The notes below the pieces were generated by a model. That model was not told the DNA's origin. It searched no databases and worked only from the letters and a program-made list of their open reading frames with translations. A stretch of DNA of 64,000 nucleotides, taken from NCBI GenBank assembly GCA_965224025.1, contig OZ245033.1, forward strand, positions 1,120,001-1,184,000. The letters are read 5' to 3'. The translations under genes and the position numbers were made by a program. Origin of the DNA: Candidatus Multivorans sp. (GTDB taxonomy: Bacteria > Acidobacteriota > Thermoanaerobaculia > Multivoradales > Multivoraceae). This document shows positions 647-60,681 of the stretch, one piece after another; position 1 is the first letter of the stretch; each line of letters starts with the position of its first letter.

Positions 647-2062
647 ATGAGCATTGCCGCCGTTCTTGAGCGCGTGGACCGGGAGACCGGCGCCAGCCTC
701 GAGCAGTTGAAGGAGTACCTCCGGATTCCGTCCGTCTCGACGGATCCCGCCTACGCCGGAGAGGTGCGACGCTGCGCGGGATTCGTCCAGGAGCGGCTTC
801 GGGCCGCCGGGCTGGACACGGAAATCGTCGACACCGCGGGGCATCCGCTGGTCTACGGCGAATGGCTTGGCGCTCCCGGGCGGCCCACGGTCCTCTTCTA
901 CGGCCACTACGACGTGCAGCCGGTGGACCCACTGAACGAGTGGCGTAACGACCCGTTCGAGCCGACCATCGAAACCAGCGAGCGCGGCGAGCAGATCGTG
1001 GCCCGCGGCGCCACGGACGACAAGGGCCAGTCCTTCACCCACATCAAGGCGGTCGAGGCGCTGATGGCGGAAACCGGCAGCTTGCCGGTCAACGTGAAGT
1101 TCCTGATCGAGGGCGAGGAGGAGTGCGGCGGCGAGGCGATCGAAGCGTACGTCCGGAGTTCAGAGGCCCGGCGGCTCGCCTGCGACCTGGCGGTGGTCTC
1201 GGACACGTCGATGTACGGACCGGGACAGCCGTCCGTTCTGTACGGCCTGAAGGGACTGCTCTACACCGAGGTCAGGGTCCGCGGGGCGGCGCGGGACCTG
1301 CACTCCGGCACCTTTGGCGGCGCGGTGGCGAATCCGCTGAATGCCCTGGCGACCATGCTGGCGGCGCTGCGCGACCCGGAGAACGGAAAGGTGCTGATCC
1401 CCGGCTTCTACGACGAGGTGCTGCCTCTGGGGTCCGGGGAGCGTTCCGCATTCGCCGCGCTGCCGTTCGACGAGGCGCGGTACGCCGACGAAATCGGCGC
1501 CAGCGCCCTGTGGGGCGAGGCCGGCTACACGACCCTGGAGAGGGTCTGGGCCCGACCGACCTGTGACGTGAACGGGGTCTGGGGCGGCTACCAGGGTCCG
1601 GGCGCCAAGACCGTGATCGCCAACCGCGCCGGCGCCAAGGTCTCCATGCGCCTGGTTCCCGACCAGGAACCGGAGCGCCTGTTCGGCGCCTTCGCGGAGT
1701 ACCTGCGTTCGCTGGCGCCGCCGGGCATCGAGGTCGAGGTCGAGACTCTGAACGGGGCGCCGCCGGTGCTCGTCGACCTCGAAGGTCCGCTCGTCGATGC
1801 GGCCCTGGAAGGCGTGCGGGAGGCCTGGGGCCGGGCACCCGTGCAGGTTCGGGAGGGAGGTTCGATTCCCATCGTCTCGACGCTGTCGGAGGTGCTGGGG
1901 GCGCCGGTGCTGCTGATCGGGTTCGGCCTCTCGGACGACCGTCTGCACGCGCCGAACGAGAAGATGGACCTGGCCAACTTCTACCAGGGCATCCGCACCG
2001 TGGTCCGGGTTCTTGGCCGCCTGGGAGGCTGTGCGGCGGGTGCGGTCCGTCCCGGCGCTTGA
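647..2062 (+). CDS. M20/M25/M40 family metallo-dipeptidase
   Basis: YGHYDVQP, ARGATDDKG, EGEEE, DLHSG, GGSIP and HAPNE motifs; GGAGGG RBS upstream. Confidence 0.92.
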   Translation: MSIAAVLERVDRETGASLEQLKEYLRIPSVSTDPAYAGEVRRCAGFVQERLRAAGLDTEIVDTAGHPLVYGEWLGAPGRPTVLFYGHYDVQPVDPLNEWRNDPFEPTIETSERGEQIVARGATDDKGQSFTHIKAVEALMAETGSLPVNVKFLIEGEEECGGEAIEAYVRSSEARRLACDLAVVSDTSMYGPGQPSVLYGLKGLLYTEVRVRGAARDLHSGTFGGAVANPLNALATMLAALRDPENGKVLIPGFYDEVLPLGSGERSAFAALPFDEARYADEIGASALWGEAGYTTLERVWARPTCDVNGVWGGYQGPGAKTVIANRAGAKVSMRLVPDQEPERLFGAFAEYLRSLAPPGIEVEVETLNGAPPVLVDLEGPLVDAALEGVREAWGRAPVQVREGGSIPIVSTLSEVLGAPVLLIGFGLSDDRLHAPNEKMDLANFYQGIRTVVRVLGRLGGCAAGAVRPGA

Positions 2063-2643
2063 AGGAACGCGAGATCAAGATTCCGGTGGCCGACCTGGAC
2101 GGGGTCCGGGATCGGTTGCTTGCGGCGGGCGCCGACCTCCACCGTCCTGCCTCTCTGGAGGCGAACCAGGTGTTCGATCGCGTCGACGCGCCGGTGGAGC
2201 AGCGTCTGCGGTCCCGCCGCGAGTTGCTGCGCCTGCGCTCCGATGGCGCCGGCAACCGGCTGACCTTCAAGTCGGCCCCGCGCTTCGTGGGCAGCGTGAA
2301 GGAGCGGCTGGAACACGAGTTCTCGGTCGACGACCCGGCAGCCGCGCGACTGCTGCTGGAGTCCTTGGGGTTCGGGGTCGCCGCGCGCTACGAGAAGGTC
2401 CGCGAGACGTGGTGCCTCAATGGCTGCGAAGTCTCGCTCGACCGGACCCCCATGGGCGACTTCGTGGAAGTCGAGGAACTGGGCAGCGAACTGCCGTCGA
2501 ATCGGATCGAGGAAGTATGCCGGCGCTGCGGCCTCGATCCCGCGCAGTCGGTGCCGGAGGACTACCTGGCGCTCTACCGGGCCTACCGCGGGGACAGGCC
2601 GGATCTGCCGCGGGACATGGTCTTTCATCCGTGCGCCCGATGA
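2059..2643 (+). CDS. CYTH domain protein (class IV adenylate cyclase-like)
   Basis: N-terminal ExExK (EREIK), LRLR, LTFK, YEKVRE and FVEVE; TTG start overlaps the upstream stop. Confidence 0.85.
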   Translation: MKEREIKIPVADLDGVRDRLLAAGADLHRPASLEANQVFDRVDAPVEQRLRSRRELLRLRSDGAGNRLTFKSAPRFVGSVKERLEHEFSVDDPAAARLLLESLGFGVAARYEKVRETWCLNGCEVSLDRTPMGDFVEVEELGSELPSNRIEEVCRRCGLDPAQSVPEDYLALYRAYRGDRPDLPRDMVFHPCAR

Positions 2644-2735
2644 CGGGCGCTCGGACTGGTTCGCGGGTGGCGCGGAGCGCGCCACCCGGGTTCGAGCATC
2701 GGCCCGGCGCTGGATCCATCCAGCGAGACCGAGGA

Positions 2736-3791
2736 GTGAAGCGCGAGAGCCGGCGGGTGCGGGCGCTCGTGCTCTGCGCCGGGCGCGCCGAACGGCTGCG
2801 GCCGCTGAGCAGCTTCCTGGCCAAACCGCTGCTGCCGGTCGCCGGCCGGCCGGTGGCGATGCGCACGATCGACATCCTCCACCGCGCCGGCTGCGAGACG
2901 GCGGTCAACCTGCACCACTTGGCGGGCGCCGTGCGGCGTGGATTGGGGTCACAAACCGGTGAACGCGGAGTCGACCTCGCCTTCACCGTCGAGACGAACC
3001 TGCTGGGGACGCTGGGGGCGGTGGTCAACCTCCGGGACTTCCTGGCCGGGGGTGACGAGATCGTGTTGGTGAACGGCGACTCGCTCTGCCGCTGGCCGAT
3101 TCGCGACGTGCTTGCCCGGCACCGCCGGAGCGGCGCCGACGTCACGCTGCAGCTTGGCCGCGAAGCGCCGGACGAGCGCCTGGGCGGCGGCGTGGAAGTC
3201 GACCGCCGGGGGCTCGTCACGGGGCTCCGCGACCTGCGCGTCGGTTCGGTTCGCGGCCGCGGGCGCACTTTCCAGGGGCTGCACGTCCTGTCGCGCCGGG
3301 TCCTGGATGCGATTCCGTCACCTTTGGTCTCCAACGACATCGTGGAAGGTCTCTACCAGCCCCTGCTGCGGGCTGGGGCCCGGATCGTCGGTTTCGGCTG
3401 CCGCCGCCGCTGGCACGACCTCGGGACACCGCGCCGCTACCTGGATGGGGCTCTCGATTGGGGCCGCACCGCCGGCGGCCGCAAGCGGCGCCGGCGCTTC
3501 GTGTCGCCGGGAGTCGCCGTGGGCAGCGGCGCGGCCATCGAACACAGCGTGGTCGAGAGCGGCAGCCGTCTCGGCGCCGGTGCGCTGGTGGAGCACAGTC
3601 TGCTGATGCCGGACGCCCGGGTCGGCGCGGGGGCCCGGCTTCGCGACACGGTCGTTGGGCCGGGCGTTCAGGTGCCGCCGGGGCTTGAGGTCGACGGCGA
3701 GCTCTTGACGCCGGCGGATTGGGGGAGCGCCCCGGACACCCGCTCCGAAGAGCGGGATGGGCTCGTCTACACGGCGCTGGACCCGACCTAG
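2736..3791 (+). CDS. NDP-sugar synthase / nucleotidyltransferase (mannose-1-P guanylyltransferase-like) with C-terminal hexapeptide repeats
   Basis: ALVLCAGRAERLRPL...KPLLPV, NGD and WHDLGTP motifs. GTG start at 2736 chosen; an in-frame ATG at 2640 is an alternative. Confidence 0.82.
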   Translation: MKRESRRVRALVLCAGRAERLRPLSSFLAKPLLPVAGRPVAMRTIDILHRAGCETAVNLHHLAGAVRRGLGSQTGERGVDLAFTVETNLLGTLGAVVNLRDFLAGGDEIVLVNGDSLCRWPIRDVLARHRRSGADVTLQLGREAPDERLGGGVEVDRRGLVTGLRDLRVGSVRGRGRTFQGLHVLSRRVLDAIPSPLVSNDIVEGLYQPLLRAGARIVGFGCRRRWHDLGTPRRYLDGALDWGRTAGGRKRRRRFVSPGVAVGSGAAIEHSVVESGSRLGAGALVEHSLLMPDARVGAGARLRDTVVGPGVQVPPGLEVDGELLTPADWGSAPDTRSEERDGLVYTALDPT

Positions 3792-3794
3792 GAG

Positions 3795-3853
3795 GCGAGT
3801 CGCGGCGTCCGCGCCGCGTTGATGCAGAGGAAAGAGGGCGTGTTCCATGCAAG
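3795..3853 (+). mobile_element. 59-bp non-autonomous IS110-related mini element
   Basis: Flanked by ctagg-AG and AG-cttgcgcggcagaa; contains hairpin cgcggcg-tccg-cgccgcg and ends in tgttccatgcaAG, identical to the IS110 right end at 60282-60294. Confidence 0.8.
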
Positions 3854-3894
3854 CTTGCGCGGCAGAACTCTCGGCGGCCGGCGCTTCGCGCCGG

Positions 3895-3920
3895 ATGCCG
3901 GCCAGAGGCCGGCGCACCCA
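3895..3920 (-). repeat. REP-like short palindrome (second repeat family)
   Basis: atgccggccagaggccggcgcaccca; related copies at 25951-25977, 60825-60850, 54988-55010, 14163-14186 and 41234-41257. Confidence 0.6.
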
Positions 3921-19941: not shown

Positions 19942-21504
19942 ATGAACAGAGAGCTTGCATGGAACAAGTTTCCTTTGCGTCAGCGCGGCGCGGACGCCGC
20001 GACTCGACTCCTGGTGGAGAGCGACGCGCTCCAGACTCGGGTAGCTCTAGTCGAGTCCGGCCGGTTGGTGGAGCTCTTCATCGAGCGCCGAGGGCGCCGG
20101 GGCCTGGTCGGCAACCTCTACAAGGGCCGGGTGCGCCGGGTGCTCCCCGGCATGAGAGCCGCCTTCGTCGATCTCGGACTGGAGCGGGACGGCTACCTCT
20201 GGGTCGAAGACGTGGTCGATGCCGGGCCAGGAGAGCGAGGCCCTGAGCGAAGCTCCGGCCGCGCGGCGGGCCGGGAGGCGTTGCCGCCGATCGACGGCAT
20301 GCTGCGCCGGGGCCAGGATCTGATCGTCCAGGTCACCAAGGACGGGCTCGCGGGGAAGGGAGCGCGCATCACCACCCAGATCACGCTTCCCGGCCGCTAC
20401 CTGGTGTTGACGCCGACCGGCGACCGGGTGGCCATCTCGAGGCGCATCGAGGACGCGGACGAACGGGATCGGCTGAAGGGACTGGTCCCGGCTGGTTGCG
20501 ACGACTCCGCCGCCCTGCCGGGCTGCATCGTGCGTACCGCCGCTGCGGGCGTGGGAGAAGAGCAGATCCAGGCGGAGTACGAGACGCTTGCGGCGACCTG
20601 GCGGCGGATCGAGGAGCGGACGGCGGCCGCGGCCGCGCCGGCTCTGCTCCACCGCGAGGACGAGCTGGATGTACGTGTGATCCGGGACCTTTTCTCCGCC
20701 GATTTCGGCTCTCTGCTCGTGGACGGCGCCGACGCCTACCGGCGGATCGGGGAGTACCTTGGGCGGGTGCAGCCGGAGCTCCTCGAACGGGTCGAGCGGA
20801 CCCGGAGAGGTCTGTTCCAGCGCTACCGGATCGACGACGCGATCGAAGCTGCGCTACGTGACCGCGTGCCGCTTCCGTCGGGTGGCTGCCTGGTGATCAA
20901 CCAGACCGAGGCTCTGGTCGCGATCGACGTCAATACCGGCCGCGACGTCGGCGCCGCGGACTTTGAAGAGACGGTTCTCCAGACCAACCTGGAGGCGGCC
21001 GCGGAGGCGGTACGCCAGATCCGGCTGCGCGATCTGTCCGGCATCCTGATCATCGATCTGATCGACATGGAGCGCGAGGATCATCGCGAGCAGGTGTTCG
21101 CCCGCTTGGAGGCGGAGCTCCAGAAGGACCGCGCCAGACACAGAGTGCTCGAGATCTCGGAATTCGGCCTGGTCCAACTGACCCGCCGGCGCAGCCACGC
21201 GAACCTGGAGAAGCTGCTCACCCGGGACTGCCCCTACTGTCAGGGGGCGGGCCGCATCAAGTCGGTTGCGACGATCTGTCTGGAGCTGCGACGAACCTGT
21301 CTGGCCCGGGCCGGGAGCGGCGCCCGTCAGTTGGCGGTGCGGGTCCACCCTGAGGTCCTGGACGGCCTGCGTGGCGCCGAGTCGGCGGTGCTGGACGGCC
21401 TGCAGGGGGCGTTCGAAGCACCGGTCCTGGTTCAGGGGGCCCCGGAGTTGCATCGCGAGCACTTCGTCGTCGCTGAAGTAGCTGAAGCAGGGGAGAGGAT
21501 CTGA
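19942..21504 (+). CDS. rng: Ribonuclease G (Rne/Rng family) carrying an 18-aa N-terminal insertion
   Basis: GNLYKGRV, AAFVDLG, QVTKD...KGAR, IDVNTG, LRDLSGILIID and CPYC motifs. Confidence 0.93.
   Translation: MNRELAWNKFPLRQRGADAATRLLVESDALQTRVALVESGRLVELFIERRGRRGLVGNLYKGRVRRVLPGMRAAFVDLGLERDGYLWVEDVVDAGPGERGPERSSGRAAGREALPPIDGMLRRGQDLIVQVTKDGLAGKGARITTQITLPGRYLVLTPTGDRVAISRRIEDADERDRLKGLVPAGCDDSAALPGCIVRTAAAGVGEEQIQAEYETLAATWRRIEERTAAAAAPALLHREDELDVRVIRDLFSADFGSLLVDGADAYRRIGEYLGRVQPELLERVERTRRGLFQRYRIDDAIEAALRDRVPLPSGGCLVINQTEALVAIDVNTGRDVGAADFEETVLQTNLEAAAEAVRQIRLRDLSGILIIDLIDMEREDHREQVFARLEAELQKDRARHRVLEISEFGLVQLTRRRSHANLEKLLTRDCPYCQGAGRIKSVATICLELRRTCLARAGSGARQLAVRVHPEVLDGLRGAESAVLDGLQGAFEAPVLVQGAPELHREHFVVAEVAEAGERI
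19956..20009 (-). mobile_element. 54-bp IS110-related mini element inserted in frame in rng
   Basis: Minus strand reads ccagg-AG-tcgagtcgcggcgtccgcgccgcgctgacgcaaaggaaacttgttccatgca-AG-ctctct. Removing it restores MNRELLVESD. Confidence 0.82.
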
Positions 21505-39236: not shown

Positions 39237-41180
<1,944 letters not shown>

Positions 41181-41183
41181 GAG

Positions 41184-41330
41184 TCAGCGCTGCGTCCGCG
41201 CAGCGCTGACTTGCAGGGAACTGGTCGCCGACTGGGTGCGCGGGTCTTCTGACCCGCTGCCGCCGGAGGCGGCCAGAGATACGTGCCGGCCGTCAGGCCG
41301 GCTCCGCTTTGGCGGCCAGTTCCCTGCAAG
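41184..41330 (+). mobile_element. 147-bp IS110-related MITE
   Basis: ctagg-AG left junction; hairpin gtcagcgctgcg-tccg-cgcagcgctgac; 20-bp inverted repeat (41210-41229 vs 41311-41330, one mismatch); ends gttccctgcaAG followed by cctgcgcggcag. Confidence 0.82.
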
Positions 41331-57169: not shown

Positions 57170-58639
57170 ATGAAGAGGCTCACCCTGTCATCCATGCGTC
57201 CGATGACGGACGCATGGACTGCTTCACGAGTGGCGCGGATCGCGCCACTCGGGTTCGTTTTCTCGAGCTTCCTGCTGGCGGCGACGGCTGCCGCGCAGGA
57301 GCCACCGAACATCGTCCTGCTGTTCGCCGACGACCTCGGCTACGGCGCCATCTCCGCTTACGGAGGCGCCGGGATCCCGACGCCGAACATCGACTCGCTC
57401 GGCGAGGACGGAGTGCGCTTCGTGTCCGGCTACATGACCGCGCCGGTCTGCAACCCGTCGCGCAACGGCCTGATCACCGGCCGCTACCAGCAGCGCTGGG
57501 GCAAGGAGCTGAACTCCCAGACCGTACCGCCGATCGGCGCTGCCAGGGGGACTCTCGGCATCCACCACCAAACGATCGGCGACGCGCTCCAGACCGCCGG
57601 CTACACGAACGCTGCGGTCGGCAAGTGGCAATTGGGGATGCGGCGGCTCCTCCACCCGCTCGACCGCGGCTTCGACTACTTCTACGGCATGCCGTCGGGC
57701 ATGAACTACGTCGACCCGAGCTGGCCCGGCGCTCACGCGCTGGAGATGAAGCCGGTCACCCGAGGAAGTCCGGACCGCATCGTCGCGATGTTCAAGGGCC
57801 GCGAGGAGGACGAGCTCAAGGAGTACCAGACCACCCAGCTCGCCCGCGAGGGAACCGACTTCATCGACCGCAACAAGGACAACCCCTTCTTCCTCTACCT
57901 CGCCTTCTACGCGGTGCATGCTCCGATGCAGGTGATGGACGAGCACTACCAGCGCTTCCCGGACTTCGACGACCAGTACCGGCGCGTGTACGCCGGCATG
58001 GTCAGCGCGCTGGACGACGCCGTCGGCATGGTCCTGGCCAAGCTCGAGGAACACGGTTTGGCCGACAACACGCTGGTCATCTTCACCGCCGACAACGGCG
58101 CCATGTCCACGCAGGACACCGAGCGGATTCACAACAGCCCGCTGATCGGCCACAAGCGGAACCTGTACGAGGGCGGCATCCGGGTGCCCTTCCTGATGCG
58201 CTTCCCCGGCCGCATTCCCGCGGGCACGGTCTACGAGCACCCGATCAGCTCGCTGGACATCTTCGCCACTTCGGTGAGCCTGGCGGCGGTGCCGGACGTG
58301 GAGCGCTACCAGCTCGACGGCGTCGATCTGTTGCCGTACCTCGCCGGCGAGCAGGAGGGCGCGCCGCACGAGTACCTGTTCTGGCGCTCGGGGCCGAACG
58401 CCGCGGTCCGCCACGGTTCCTGGAAGCTCCTGATGGCTGGAGGCCTGGAGCGGCTCTACGACGTCGACCGGGATTCGAGCGAATCAGAGGACCTGGCCGC
58501 CGCGAACCCGGATATCGTCGCGAAGCTGAAGGAGGCGTTCGCGCGCTGGAACGAGGAGATGGAGGACGGCCGGATGTCACCGCCCGCCCGGCGCGCGACG
58601 ACGACCTACAACGGCGACACCATCGAGTGGCACATCTAG
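57170..58639 (+). CDS. Secreted Cys-type arylsulfatase-family sulfatase
   Basis: Signal peptide; PNIVLLFADDLGYG, CNPSR (CxPxR), GKW, DNG and YEGGIRVP. Confidence 0.92.
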   Translation: MKRLTLSSMRPMTDAWTASRVARIAPLGFVFSSFLLAATAAAQEPPNIVLLFADDLGYGAISAYGGAGIPTPNIDSLGEDGVRFVSGYMTAPVCNPSRNGLITGRYQQRWGKELNSQTVPPIGAARGTLGIHHQTIGDALQTAGYTNAAVGKWQLGMRRLLHPLDRGFDYFYGMPSGMNYVDPSWPGAHALEMKPVTRGSPDRIVAMFKGREEDELKEYQTTQLAREGTDFIDRNKDNPFFLYLAFYAVHAPMQVMDEHYQRFPDFDDQYRRVYAGMVSALDDAVGMVLAKLEEHGLADNTLVIFTADNGAMSTQDTERIHNSPLIGHKRNLYEGGIRVPFLMRFPGRIPAGTVYEHPISSLDIFATSVSLAAVPDVERYQLDGVDLLPYLAGEQEGAPHEYLFWRSGPNAAVRHGSWKLLMAGGLERLYDVDRDSSESEDLAAANPDIVAKLKEAFARWNEEMEDGRMSPPARRATTTYNGDTIEWHI

Positions 58640-58731
58640 GAGTGTCCGCAGCGTTGTCGCTGCGCTGTCGCGCAGGGAACAGGCAGCGAGTAGCCAACGT
58701 TACAGCGGCGTCGTGGGTTCATAGAGTTGGC

Positions 58732-58887
58732 CGCGCTGGGCAGCGAGGCCGCGCAGGCACTGGTGTGTTGGCGCCCGACTAGGAGTTTGGCCCGGACCGT
58801 GATCGGCGCTCTGACGCTGGCGGCGCGGCTTGTGTCGCGACCCCGTATGCAAGATTGAGCTTTTCGCCGCGGTCTCTGCCCAGCGCG
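58732..58887 (+). ncRNA. Candidate IS110 bridge/seek RNA
   Basis: Long stem (58732-58753 with 58868-58887) enclosing ctaggagt (58779-58786, target-left plus core) and atgcaag (58847-58853, right end plus core). Confidence 0.65.
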
Positions 58888-58920
58888 ACGATTGGATTCC
58901 ACATCTACGGGAGGCAGGGG

Positions 58921-60240
58921 ATGGCAAAGCGGAAGGCGGAGCGTCTGGAAGTCGTTCACCCGGATTGCGCCGGTGTGGACGTAGGCAAGCGCAAGCACTA
59001 CGTGGCGGTGGCCCCGTCGCGTTTCGAGCGGCCGGTGCGCAATTTCTCGTCGTTCACGGAGGACCTCGAGGTGATGGCCTCGTGGCTTCAGGAGTGCGGC
59101 GTGCGTGAGGTGGCGCTGGAGTCGACGGGGGTGTACTGGATTCCGGTGTTCGAGGTGCTGGACCGGGCGGGGTTCGAGGTGCATCTGGTGAATCCTCGGG
59201 CGACCAAGCAGGTGAGTGGCCGCAAGAGTGACGTTCTGGACTGCCAGTGGATCCGGCAGTTGATGAGCTACGGGCTCCTGCGCGGTGCGTTTCGCGCGCC
59301 GGACGAGTTGTGTCCGCTGCGTTCGTACACGCGGCAGCGCGCCCAGTTGGTCCGCGACCGCAGCCGCGCGGTGCAGCACATCCAGAAGGCTCTGGTGCAG
59401 ATGAACGTGCAGTTGGACAACGTGCTGAGCGACATCATGGGCAAGACCGGCCAGTTGATCGTGCGCGCGATCGTCGCCGGCGAGCGCGACGGCGCGGCGC
59501 TGGCCCGTCACCGGGACGGTCGCTGCAAGGCTGGTCCGGCTGTGATCGCGGCGAGTTTGCAAGGCAACTGGCGAGACGAGCACCTGTTCGCTCTGGGCCA
59601 GGCGCTGGCCCGCTACGACATGCTGCAAGGCCAGATCGAGATGTGCGAGAAGCGCATCGACGCCGAGCTCGACGGCCTGGCCCAAGACGGCGTCGAGGAC
59701 GCGCCGCCGCCCGGTTCGAAGGCGCGCGAGCGCGCCCTGCGGAAGCGGCTGCATCGCATGCTCGGCGTGGACCTGGTCGCCATTCCGACGGTCGGCGTCG
59801 AAACCGCGCTGACCTTCGCCGCTGAGATCGGCCCGGACCTGTCCCGGTTTCCCTCGCAGGGCAACTTCTGCTCGTGGCTGTGTCTGGCTCCACCGACCAA
59901 CATCAGCGGCGACAAACGGCTGAACGGCCCTCCCGTGAAGCAGACCAACCGGGTCGGCCAGACGCTGCGCCAAGCCGCCACCACAGCCCGCAACAGCAAG
60001 ACCGCCATCGGAGCCTCTCACCGCCGGCGTCTCCAGCACATGGAGAAGGCGAAGGCCATCAAGGCCACCGCTCATCAACTCGGCCGACTGATCTACGCCA
60101 TGCTGACCCACGGCGAAGAGTACGTCGAGCGCGACCTCGCCGAAATGGAGGCCGTCCGACGCGAACGACAAATCAGAAACCTGCAGCGTCAGGCCCGCCG
60201 CCTGAATCTGGCTCTCGTGCCGACCGAACATGCCGCCTGA
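58921..60240 (+). CDS. IS110 family DEDD recombinase/transposase
   Basis: GVDVG, ALESTGVYW, KSDVLD, IPTVG, RFPS and PPTNISG; GGGAGG RBS upstream. Confidence 0.95.
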   Translation: MAKRKAERLEVVHPDCAGVDVGKRKHYVAVAPSRFERPVRNFSSFTEDLEVMASWLQECGVREVALESTGVYWIPVFEVLDRAGFEVHLVNPRATKQVSGRKSDVLDCQWIRQLMSYGLLRGAFRAPDELCPLRSYTRQRAQLVRDRSRAVQHIQKALVQMNVQLDNVLSDIMGKTGQLIVRAIVAGERDGAALARHRDGRCKAGPAVIAASLQGNWRDEHLFALGQALARYDMLQGQIEMCEKRIDAELDGLAQDGVEDAPPPGSKARERALRKRLHRMLGVDLVAIPTVGVETALTFAAEIGPDLSRFPSQGNFCSWLCLAPPTNISGDKRLNGPPVKQTNRVGQTLRQAATTARNSKTAIGASHRRRLQHMEKAKAIKATAHQLGRLIYAMLTHGEEYVERDLAEMEAVRRERQIRNLQRQARRLNLALVPTEHAA

Positions 60241-60294
60241 ATCGCGCAACCTGCGCTGCCAACAAGGAACCCCTACCCGTTTGTTCCATGCAAG

Positions 60295-60344
60295 TCTGCG
60301 CGGCAGAAACGCAACATGGTGAGTTCTGGCGCGCAGACTCCTGG
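60295..60344. repeat. Remainder of the palindromic (REP-like) IS110 target, including an unoccupied inverted copy
   Basis: tctgcgcggcagaa and ttctggcgcgcagactcctgg (reverse complement ccaggAGtctgcgcgccagaa). Confidence 0.75.
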
Positions 60345-60681
60345 CGAGGCTTCGCCTCAGACCGACGAGCATGTCCTTGCGGGCTACGCGAGCCGACGTA
60401 TCGATGCATGGCTCTGGCTGAAACTTGCCTCAACTGTAAAGACCACGCTCGTTCAAGGAGTCTAGTGAGGTGGGGGCTGGGGCCAAACACGGAGCTGCGA
60501 CGGGTTGGCGGCTCTAGCCCGCATGCCTCGCCGATCCTCTTGGTGTGGATCCTCGTTCGGCGGGGATAGACTTCAGTCCCTTGCCGGGGCTCTGCAGTGC
60601 CGTGAGATGGCCTGCCCTCGCTCCGTAAAGCGGACGCCTCCGACCGGAGACGTTCCCTGAAGCAGGGAGAACAAGATCGAG

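Follow-up and report, generated by a model that had tools for sequence, protein, structure and literature searches.

The 64,000-nt window of DNA analyzed here (positions 1,120,001 to 1,184,000, forward strand, of contig OZ245033.1 in assembly GCA_965224025.1, from Candidatus Multivorans sp.) contains a 59-bp unit, termed X1, that is probably a non-autonomous mini-element of an IS110 clade, placed by bridge-RNA-guided recombination at an AG core. X1 occupies 3795-3853 on the + strand (all coordinates are those of the window unless a contig is named) and lies 54.8 kb from IS-A, a full-length insertion sequence (IS) of that clade. While the original prediction treated X1 as a singular element, we found 24 copies of its core in the 5.14-Mb genome that carries the window (G000; 67.6% GC; other genomes are designated G0xx and related loci L0xx), and the unit is instead a member of a multi-copy family. 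This family most likely spreads by borrowing the machinery of IS110 elements, that is, by mobilization in trans. In what follows, X denotes units of 54-59 bp (X1, and X2 at 19954-20007), Z a unit of 147 bp, and Y another mini-element type.

IS-A is an IS110-family element of 1,652 bp following the core AG (58643-60294, + strand). Its limits were set by comparing 14 genomic copies recovered by BLAST against the whole genome; these are 99.0-100% identical, and a single diverged copy with 85% identity was found besides. Every one of the 14 begins TGTCCGCAGCGTTGT (TGTCC... at 58643 in the window) and finishes GTTCCATGCAAG (60283-60294, + strand), which consists of the left donor and the core AG, and all 14 are preceded by the target half-site CTAGGAG (58636-58642, + strand), to the left of which no conservation was seen. 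The transposase/recombinase gene (58921-60240, + strand) encodes a 439-aa protein that combines both recombinase domains of the IS110 group, DEDD_Tnp_IS110 (PF01548, E 6.2e-25) and Transposase_20 (PF02371, E 3e-11). Consistent with the same group, IS-A has no terminal inverted repeats, is inserted site-specifically, and produces no target duplication beyond the shared core dinucleotide; its inverted repeat is subterminal, on the left side, about 30 nt in. A second CTAGGAG at 58779-58785 is internal to IS-A and is not a flank. A start of the element at 58783, behind this internal copy, was rejected, as all 14 copies align from 58636. A composite structure, with a captured mini-element in front of an inner IS, was likewise rejected, as across the clade the internal CTAGGAG and the flank change together, in the manner of a guide.

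In IS110 bridge RNAs, one guide corresponds to the left target plus core and the other to the left donor plus core, as described by Durrant et al. (2024; PMC11208160). The 287-nt left end of IS-A contains candidates for both. The internal CTAGGAG (58779-58785, + strand) copies the left flank and core, and ATGCAAG (58847-58853, + strand), which stands 68 nt beyond it, copies the last 7 nt of IS-A. Both lie within a predicted bridge-RNA region (58724-58897, + strand) with an outer closing stem formed by ~58729-58743 and 58877-58893. We collected 59 related IS loci from Gammaproteobacteria (44-86% protein identity) and, for 27 of them, aligned the left end with that of IS-A. Among the 26 assessable elements, the 7-mer at the left-target-guide position was identical to the element's own left junction in 22 and matched it with at most one mismatch in 24, whereas guides borrowed from other elements matched the junction in only 21 of 474 pairings. 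Seven target-guide types were represented (CTAGGAG, CCAGGAG, ATGCAAG, ATGAAAG, ATGCGAG, ATTGTAG, and ATTCTAG). The donor-guide 7-mer, with six variants, reappeared at the element's own right end, 23-69 nt past the ORF (open reading frame), in 26 of 28 rows of the alignment. A consensus RNA fold had 50 pairs, 23 of them with compensatory changes, and comprised, besides the outer closing stem, two hairpins with one guide after each. Thus, on comparative grounds, the left end of IS-A is predicted to encode a bridge RNA with left-target and left-donor guides, located, as in the IS110 group, upstream of the recombinase gene. Folded globally as RNA, the ~290-nt left end did no better than shuffles (z 0.35). 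No Rfam family was at or near threshold in 58500-60500, and scanning 58600-58960 for sigma-70 promoters and terminators gave no hits (one promoter-like stretch, a weak match at 8 of 12 positions seen by eye, is not claimed).

The guide matches in the relatives imply that CTAGG-AG is the left half of the target, AG the core, and ATGCA-AG the right end of the donor, and the mini-elements bear both, with C[CT]AGG-AG directly to their left and an ATGCA-AG end of their own. A third segment, GCGCAGGC (58751-58758, + strand), shows complementarity to the core G and the REP (repetitive extragenic palindromic) terminus and is a candidate right-target guide. At a threshold of 7 matching positions out of 8, it fits 11 of 14 IS-A copies and 17 of 39 cases overall, compared with 12.6% of foreign pairings. 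Our confidence in this assignment is moderate, the IS-A copies being non-independent. The right flanks of IS-A copies are the termini of several REP-like repeat families. In the window, the insertion hit the left terminus of a palindromic REP-like unit, 'H' (60295-60344, + strand), which ends CTCCTGG, the inverse of CCAGGAG. Uninterrupted REP termini of the form C[CT]AGGAG-nn-TGCGCGGCAGAA numbered 34 as exact matches, and a further 11 had the ...GCAAG of an element in between; judged by their sequence, at least 34 uninterrupted termini would act as natural empty targets. Landing at REP termini is usual for REP-targeting IS110 elements.

The letters quoted by the original prediction are present at 3788-3867, where CTAGGAG (3788-3794, + strand; CTAGG plus core AG, the same letters as the IS-A guide at 58779-58785) is followed by the 59-bp unit and then directly by cttgcgcggcagaa, the terminus of a genus-wide REP-like repeat with many genome matches (3854-3919, + strand), which serves as the right half of the target. 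Its statement that both flanks match those of the full IS was also borne out, as the left 7-mers are identical and the right flank of IS-A, tctgcgcggcagaa, differs from that of X1 at 2 of 14 positions. X1 itself consists of the lead GCGAGT, a hairpin (CGCGGCG / TCCG / CGCCGCG, 3801-3818), a degenerate form of the left-end block (3819-3834), and the right end GTTCCATGCAAG (3842-3853), which closes with the core AG. The corresponding left-end module of IS-A (58647-58680, + strand), which is the portion found in the mini-elements too, comprises the hairpin CGCAGCG / TTGT / CGCTGCG (58647-58664) and the block CTGTCGCGCAGGGAAC (58665-58680). As had been noted, the two hairpins differ by one compensatory pair (A-T to G-C); the loop differs as well. 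That a mini-element is built from IS110 ends therefore held up, because its left module aligns with IS left ends and the IS right end recurs unchanged in its last 12 nt. When the 12-nt right-end motif was searched in the window with at most one mismatch, five sites were found against 0.25 expected, a number reached in none of 100 shuffles; the four sites other than X1 are X2 (minus strand), both ends of Z, and the right end of IS-A.

Of the 24 X-type cores in G000, 22 had a recognizable right end. Their lengths fell into few classes (59 bp in ten copies, 57 bp in five, 54 bp in four, and 58, 56, and 55 bp in one each), and their left 7-mers were CTAGGAG in eight, CCAGGAG in five, ATGCAAG in two, and near-variants ending in AG in seven. 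The two copies with ATGCAAG on the left stand directly behind another unit or an IS. Since tandem X-X and IS-X joins lack CTAGGAG, this 7-mer belongs to the target and not to the unit. A stricter three-part test, which X1 itself fails, also returned 24 mini-elements in G000, of 54-62 bp (16), 95-102 bp (4), 147 bp (3), and 165 bp (1). Only these three-part matches were used, as a looser regular expression for the left module gave 899 matches in the genome, mostly by chance at 67.6% GC. The shared layout consists of a few lead bases, a 7-bp hairpin, a conserved block of 16-18 nt ending ..CAGGrAAC, a spacer of 3-8 nt, and the last 12 nt of the IS, so that roughly the first 40 nt of the IS left end plus the 12-nt right end are all that the short mini-elements keep. 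Identity of the left module to that of IS-A was 24/40 for X1, 28/40 for X2, 29/40 for Z, and 33/40 for a 52-bp mini-element in G034 that has 24 consecutive nt in common with IS-A; the left modules of IS-A and its sibling IS-B (described below) agree at 35 of 41 positions. Across the IS clade and the mini-elements, 89.5% of hairpin cells were paired compared with 73.6% in shuffles, none of 500 of which reached the observed value; four of the seven pairs had changed on both sides, and controls with slid positions gave 20-62%. Folded as single-stranded DNA, units formed two adjacent hairpins on either strand, with z of -3.1 to -3.5 (X1, -3.10). With multiple dispersed copies, the core dinucleotide and target of the IS, and precise insertion, the units have the properties of a MITE-like (miniature inverted-repeat transposable element) derivative of an IS110 element. 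They depart from classical MITEs in that their two tips are not inverted repeats of each other (the left one reads TCGAGT..) and no duplication beyond AG occurs; the inverse of the right-end motif is located inside the unit. Among the ten 59-mers X1 stood out as the most diverged, departing from the column majority at 6 of 59 positions where the others depart at 1-3, and from this divergence it is probably an old, possibly inactive copy.

Relatives from a genus-level set of 42 genomes were compared at the sites of these units. X2 (54 bp, 19954-20007, minus strand) lies behind CCAGG-AG (20008-20014, minus strand). At the orthologous position G048 and G016 read CCAGGAG|CTCTCTG, and G051 and G043 read CCAGAAG|CTCTCTG. 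In G000 and G034 the AG and CTCTCTG are separated, by the 54-bp unit in the former and by a 58-bp unit belonging to a different subtype in the latter; both units end in AG. Empty sites hold one AG and filled sites an AG at each end, with no other duplication. By its sequence, the X2 site bears the signature of core-dinucleotide recombination at a non-REP site that was filled independently twice. Z, a 147-bp unit (41184-41330, + strand) behind a CTAGGAG half-site (41177-41183, + strand), contains the hairpin, an inverted right-end motif, a structured spacer of ~100 nt, and the right end GTTCCCTGCAAG, and its single-stranded DNA fold (41185-41330) had a z of -9.87. It was absent from the orthologous site in 5 of 5 relatives, and copies with 96-98% identity occur elsewhere in G016 and G048, where the flanking genes are 83-93% identical to those of G000. 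At the X1 site, 12 of 12 relatives lacked an X unit. In G010 and G012 the REP-like unit alone stands directly after the TAG stop, and in G034 a different mini-element is present in inverted orientation. Precise empty and filled alleles, for which the original prediction had called, thus exist between sister species.

The filled sites also bear on neighboring genes. X2 sits in a gene of the RNase E/G family (19942-21504, + strand; PF10150, E 1e-92), between codons 4 and 5, and adds 18 in-frame codons, giving MNRE-LAWNKFPLRQRGADAATR-LLVES where the relatives have MDRELLVES. The 58-bp unit at the same spot in G034 breaks the ATG-initiated frame (MDTELA*), and a downstream start would be needed there. 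In G016 (L088, 1985-2195), the 5′ region of this gene, including CCAGGAG|CTCTCTG, is tandemly duplicated. Upstream of X1, an ORF for a nucleotidyl-transferase-like protein (2013-3791) stops at the TAG inside CTAGGAG (3789-3791). The TAG in the half-site of Z (41178-41180) likewise terminates the gene preceding it, which in relatives ends in TAA or TGA; the TAG of G000 came with a REP-like unit. Such comparisons suggest that REP-like units, with CTAG.. or CTAGGAG.. at their termini, come and go between species and can replace the stop codon of a gene. Farther along the window, 60344-60470 holds a repeat starting ..CTAGCGAGGCTTCGCCTCAGACCGA.., of which G000 has at least eight copies with 96-100% identity, always beginning at CTAG.

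Siblings of IS-A use the right ends of the family as targets. IS-B, with 85-86% protein identity to IS-A, is present as two intact copies in G051 and as relics in G000. Its target-guide position reads ATGCAAG, and each of the intact copies immediately follows an X or Y unit, at its ...ATGCAAG end. Other relatives likewise target ATGAAAG or ATGCGAG ends, and from these guides different clade members appear to nest behind one another. In L049 the target guide is ATGAAAG and the right end ATGCGAG, and L049, L051, and L052 all aim at right ends of foreign type. In L080, from another genus, a mini-element of ~88 bp (1266-1360) lies within the IS's own left-target-guide DNA (CTAGG|...|AGTTTGG); as guide DNA mimics the target half-site, an IS would be open to hits by its own family. 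IS-B-type left-end relics in G000 were located at C1:908850-909330, C1:4134100-4134420, and C1:2130500-2131000 (minus strand). One of the IS-B relics stands behind a Y unit and has ATGCAAG at both guide positions, and two of them, together with the diverged IS copy, are interrupted at ..CATTTGAAT by yet another inserted element. G000 also contains a second, unrelated IS110-family element (~525-aa frames, ~15 copies, among 32 PF01548 matches in all), exemplified by C1:35079-35555 and C1:289454-289930.

A mechanism can be proposed from these data. The complex of resident recombinase and bridge RNA would read the ATGCA-AG right end of a mini-element through its donor guide and, with the target guide selecting the site, would insert the unit at C[CT]AGG-AG, in many cases on a match to the left half only. 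Movement would proceed via a single strand, as a single-stranded circle or by direct transfer of the top strand; by analogy with published IS110 biochemistry, we consider this route the most likely because 54-59 bp is too short for a double-stranded circle. On that strand the left-end hairpin may act as a structural cis signal. Recent studies of other members of the IS110 family lessen the concern, raised originally, that an element of 59 bp could hardly circularize. IS621 is described in a preprint as excising mainly as a single-stranded circle, with donor half-sites being sufficient, and an IS110 element of Caloranaerobacter, also in a preprint, as copying out and as transferring its top strand directly without a circle.

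Several results weigh against guided mobilization by the IS110 clade. The tallies of guide matches rest on related, non-independent elements. The first bases after the core differ, being TCGAGT in X, TGTCCG in IS-A, and TACCCA in IS-B, and a covariation scan for a right-donor guide gave no antiparallel run of four or more columns, so no guide accounts for recognition of the mini-element's left end; by eye, a conserved GACGC that precedes the second hairpin might pair with the core G and one or two further bases, a match that we do not claim. The candidate right-target guide fits the right flank in only 5 of 22 X copies, so that of the cognate target originally proposed most copies match the left half alone, which is named by the IS-A guide. 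Within the strain, two sequencing runs of one sample, available as contigs only, contained no polymorphism, circle junction, or transcript; contig joints that skip X1 and X2 are no evidence of within-strain polymorphism because their sequence is that of a co-occurring G048-like relative. Finally, the X core was found in 28 of the 42 genus genomes (a reversed-pattern control gave 0 in all) and the IS-A/IS-B clade in only 4. The association of unit and clade that had been predicted is therefore only partial: the four genomes with the clade all abound in units (core matches numbering 23, 18, 9, and 31), and 24 genomes have the unit without the clade. Ten of these 24 lack any match to the IS110-family transposase domain PF01548, although several are drafts in which ISs may be unassembled; among the ten are the closed genomes G043 and G049, which keep 11 and 9 copies. 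Any IS110-family recombinase at all was detected in 23 of the 42 genomes, and an autonomous IS led by an X-type left end in none of them. For genomes with units but without the clade, the simplest reading would be that the partner IS was lost after a burst, which is usual for MITEs. At the level of the order, the short-mini pattern with this right end occurred in 7 of 151 genomes, all in the Candidatus Multivorans genus, and the IS clade (E ≤ 1e-60) in 7 of 151 genomes from five genera; this search is no independent test of association, since the relatives outside the genus are only 44-52% identical and their ends would not match the mini-element pattern.

The same distribution, with units far more widespread than the clade, persisting in closed genomes that lack the transposase, and having no autonomous parent, favors a different origin, in which the units are an old, genus-wide REP-like host repeat whose ends the IS clade captured or converged on, for instance by landing beside them. 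The units also occur among other REP-like families and form mosaics with them. We nevertheless regard this origin as improbable. The hairpin with ..GCGCAGGGAAC and the ..GTTCC-ATGxxAG ends are kept in IS relatives of other genera at 51-86% protein identity, and the end modules are features of the IS because in those relatives they vary together with the element's own donor guide. Insertion is precise, with one AG, at a 7-mer specified by the guide, including the non-REP site inside a gene. Moreover, a plain REP origin would lack an enzyme in G000, where a search for a Y1/RAYT-type transposase (PF01797) gave 0 matches; the same search was positive in 6 of 14 control genomes.

It is also unlikely that the units, having arisen as IS110 mini-elements, no longer move and are kept because they serve the host, for example in stabilization of transcript ends or protein binding. 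Retention of this kind would account for a 28-nt core that is conserved at 0 mismatches in many species whose genes are 75-93% identical, for the many copies located just past stop codons, and for folds that are stable on both strands. Against it, sister species have copies at sites that are not orthologous, and one site received a unit on two independent occasions, which indicates recent movement rather than mere retention. In addition, no terminator signature with a T-run was seen in the IS left end, the region scanned; the X sites lay outside that scan. It is very unlikely that the short units arose by separate internal deletions, each from a full IS that formerly occupied the site, as the original prediction had suggested for X1, for although the host of ISPpu9 has an A'-69 bp-B' remnant read as a deletion by its authors (PMC12288879) and IS left-end relics exist in G000 (C1:909026 and C1:4134219), 22 copies here share the same left-to-right join in few length classes, the nine 59-mers other than X1 are a median of 3 positions apart around a core that is exact across species, and a full IS with an X-type left end is found in none of the 42 genomes.

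Placement by the IS110 clade has a close precedent. As described in PMC12288879, MITEPpu9 of Pseudomonas putida KT2440 is the ssr9 module of ISPpu9, a tnp-less element with A' and B' boxes and an AG crossover, whose circles form only when transposase is present; for ISPpu9 the bases beside the AG at both ends matter and the flanking REP does not. By that description the likeness extends to the IS end boxes, the AG crossover, REP targets, tandem arrangement with an IS sharing the AG, and an inverted repeat in the left box. MITEPpu9 differs in being much longer and in carrying a small RNA gene, whereas the present units have 52-62 bp and consist of end modules only; these fall into at least three length classes, number dozens of copies, and are present in many genomes without the IS, and they are known from sequence alone, whereas circles of MITEPpu9 have been demonstrated experimentally. 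IS621, in its published description, similarly has a left end encoding an RNA with two left guides and a shared core, and its guides vary with flank and end. Its core is CT rather than AG, and the order of its guides is the opposite of that in IS-A, where, in the consensus fold, the candidate right-target guide is on the 5′ side and both left guides are on the 3′ side of their hairpins. For ISPpu10 and other REP-targeting IS110 elements, a preprint (10.64898/2026.03.19.712850) describes a conserved intergenic repeat as target and a DNA stem-loop near the site that aids recognition. There the stem-loop belongs to the target, and here the hairpin belongs to the left end of the element and to the mini-elements.

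REP/REPIN sequences with RAYT and the palindrome-associated elements of IS200/IS605 are also short intergenic hairpin repeats, thought to move as single strands with a transposase acting in trans, and depend on Y1 (HUH) transposases. The present units differ from both in that their junctions obey the IS110 core-dinucleotide rule and that G000 has no PF01797 match. A limited literature search, covering main texts, found no published description of IS110 mini-elements of 50-60 bp. A MITE-like derivative of an IS110-family element is thus already known in MITEPpu9, and the features that appear to be new are extreme shortness, restriction to end modules, several lengths, wide occurrence without the IS, and use as landing sites by re-programmed siblings.

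Bridge recombinases are under development as programmable tools for genome insertion, and preprints of 2025-2026 still argue over single- versus double-stranded DNA movement and over the minimal cis sequence of a donor. The family of 54-59-bp donors would provide a ready-made minimal substrate, with ~40 nt of left end including a covarying hairpin and 12 nt of right end, and the size of the units is in itself an argument for a single-strand route. In the clade, seven target types and six donor types form a natural set of re-programmed guides, including siblings that aim at the ends of relatives. For annotation, the units explain stop codons supplied by repeats and the in-frame insertion of 18 codons in an RNase E/G gene. 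Tentatively, the units of 52-62 bp may be the smallest natural donors of a bridge recombinase, traveling as single strands with the left end marked by a hairpin instead of a right-donor guide, and siblings re-programmed to ATGCA-AG may use them as landing pads, building arrays of mini-elements and ISs at REP termini as safe havens. If this were true, the repeated, precise spread of the mini-elements would be natural evidence that IS110 elements travel as single strands.

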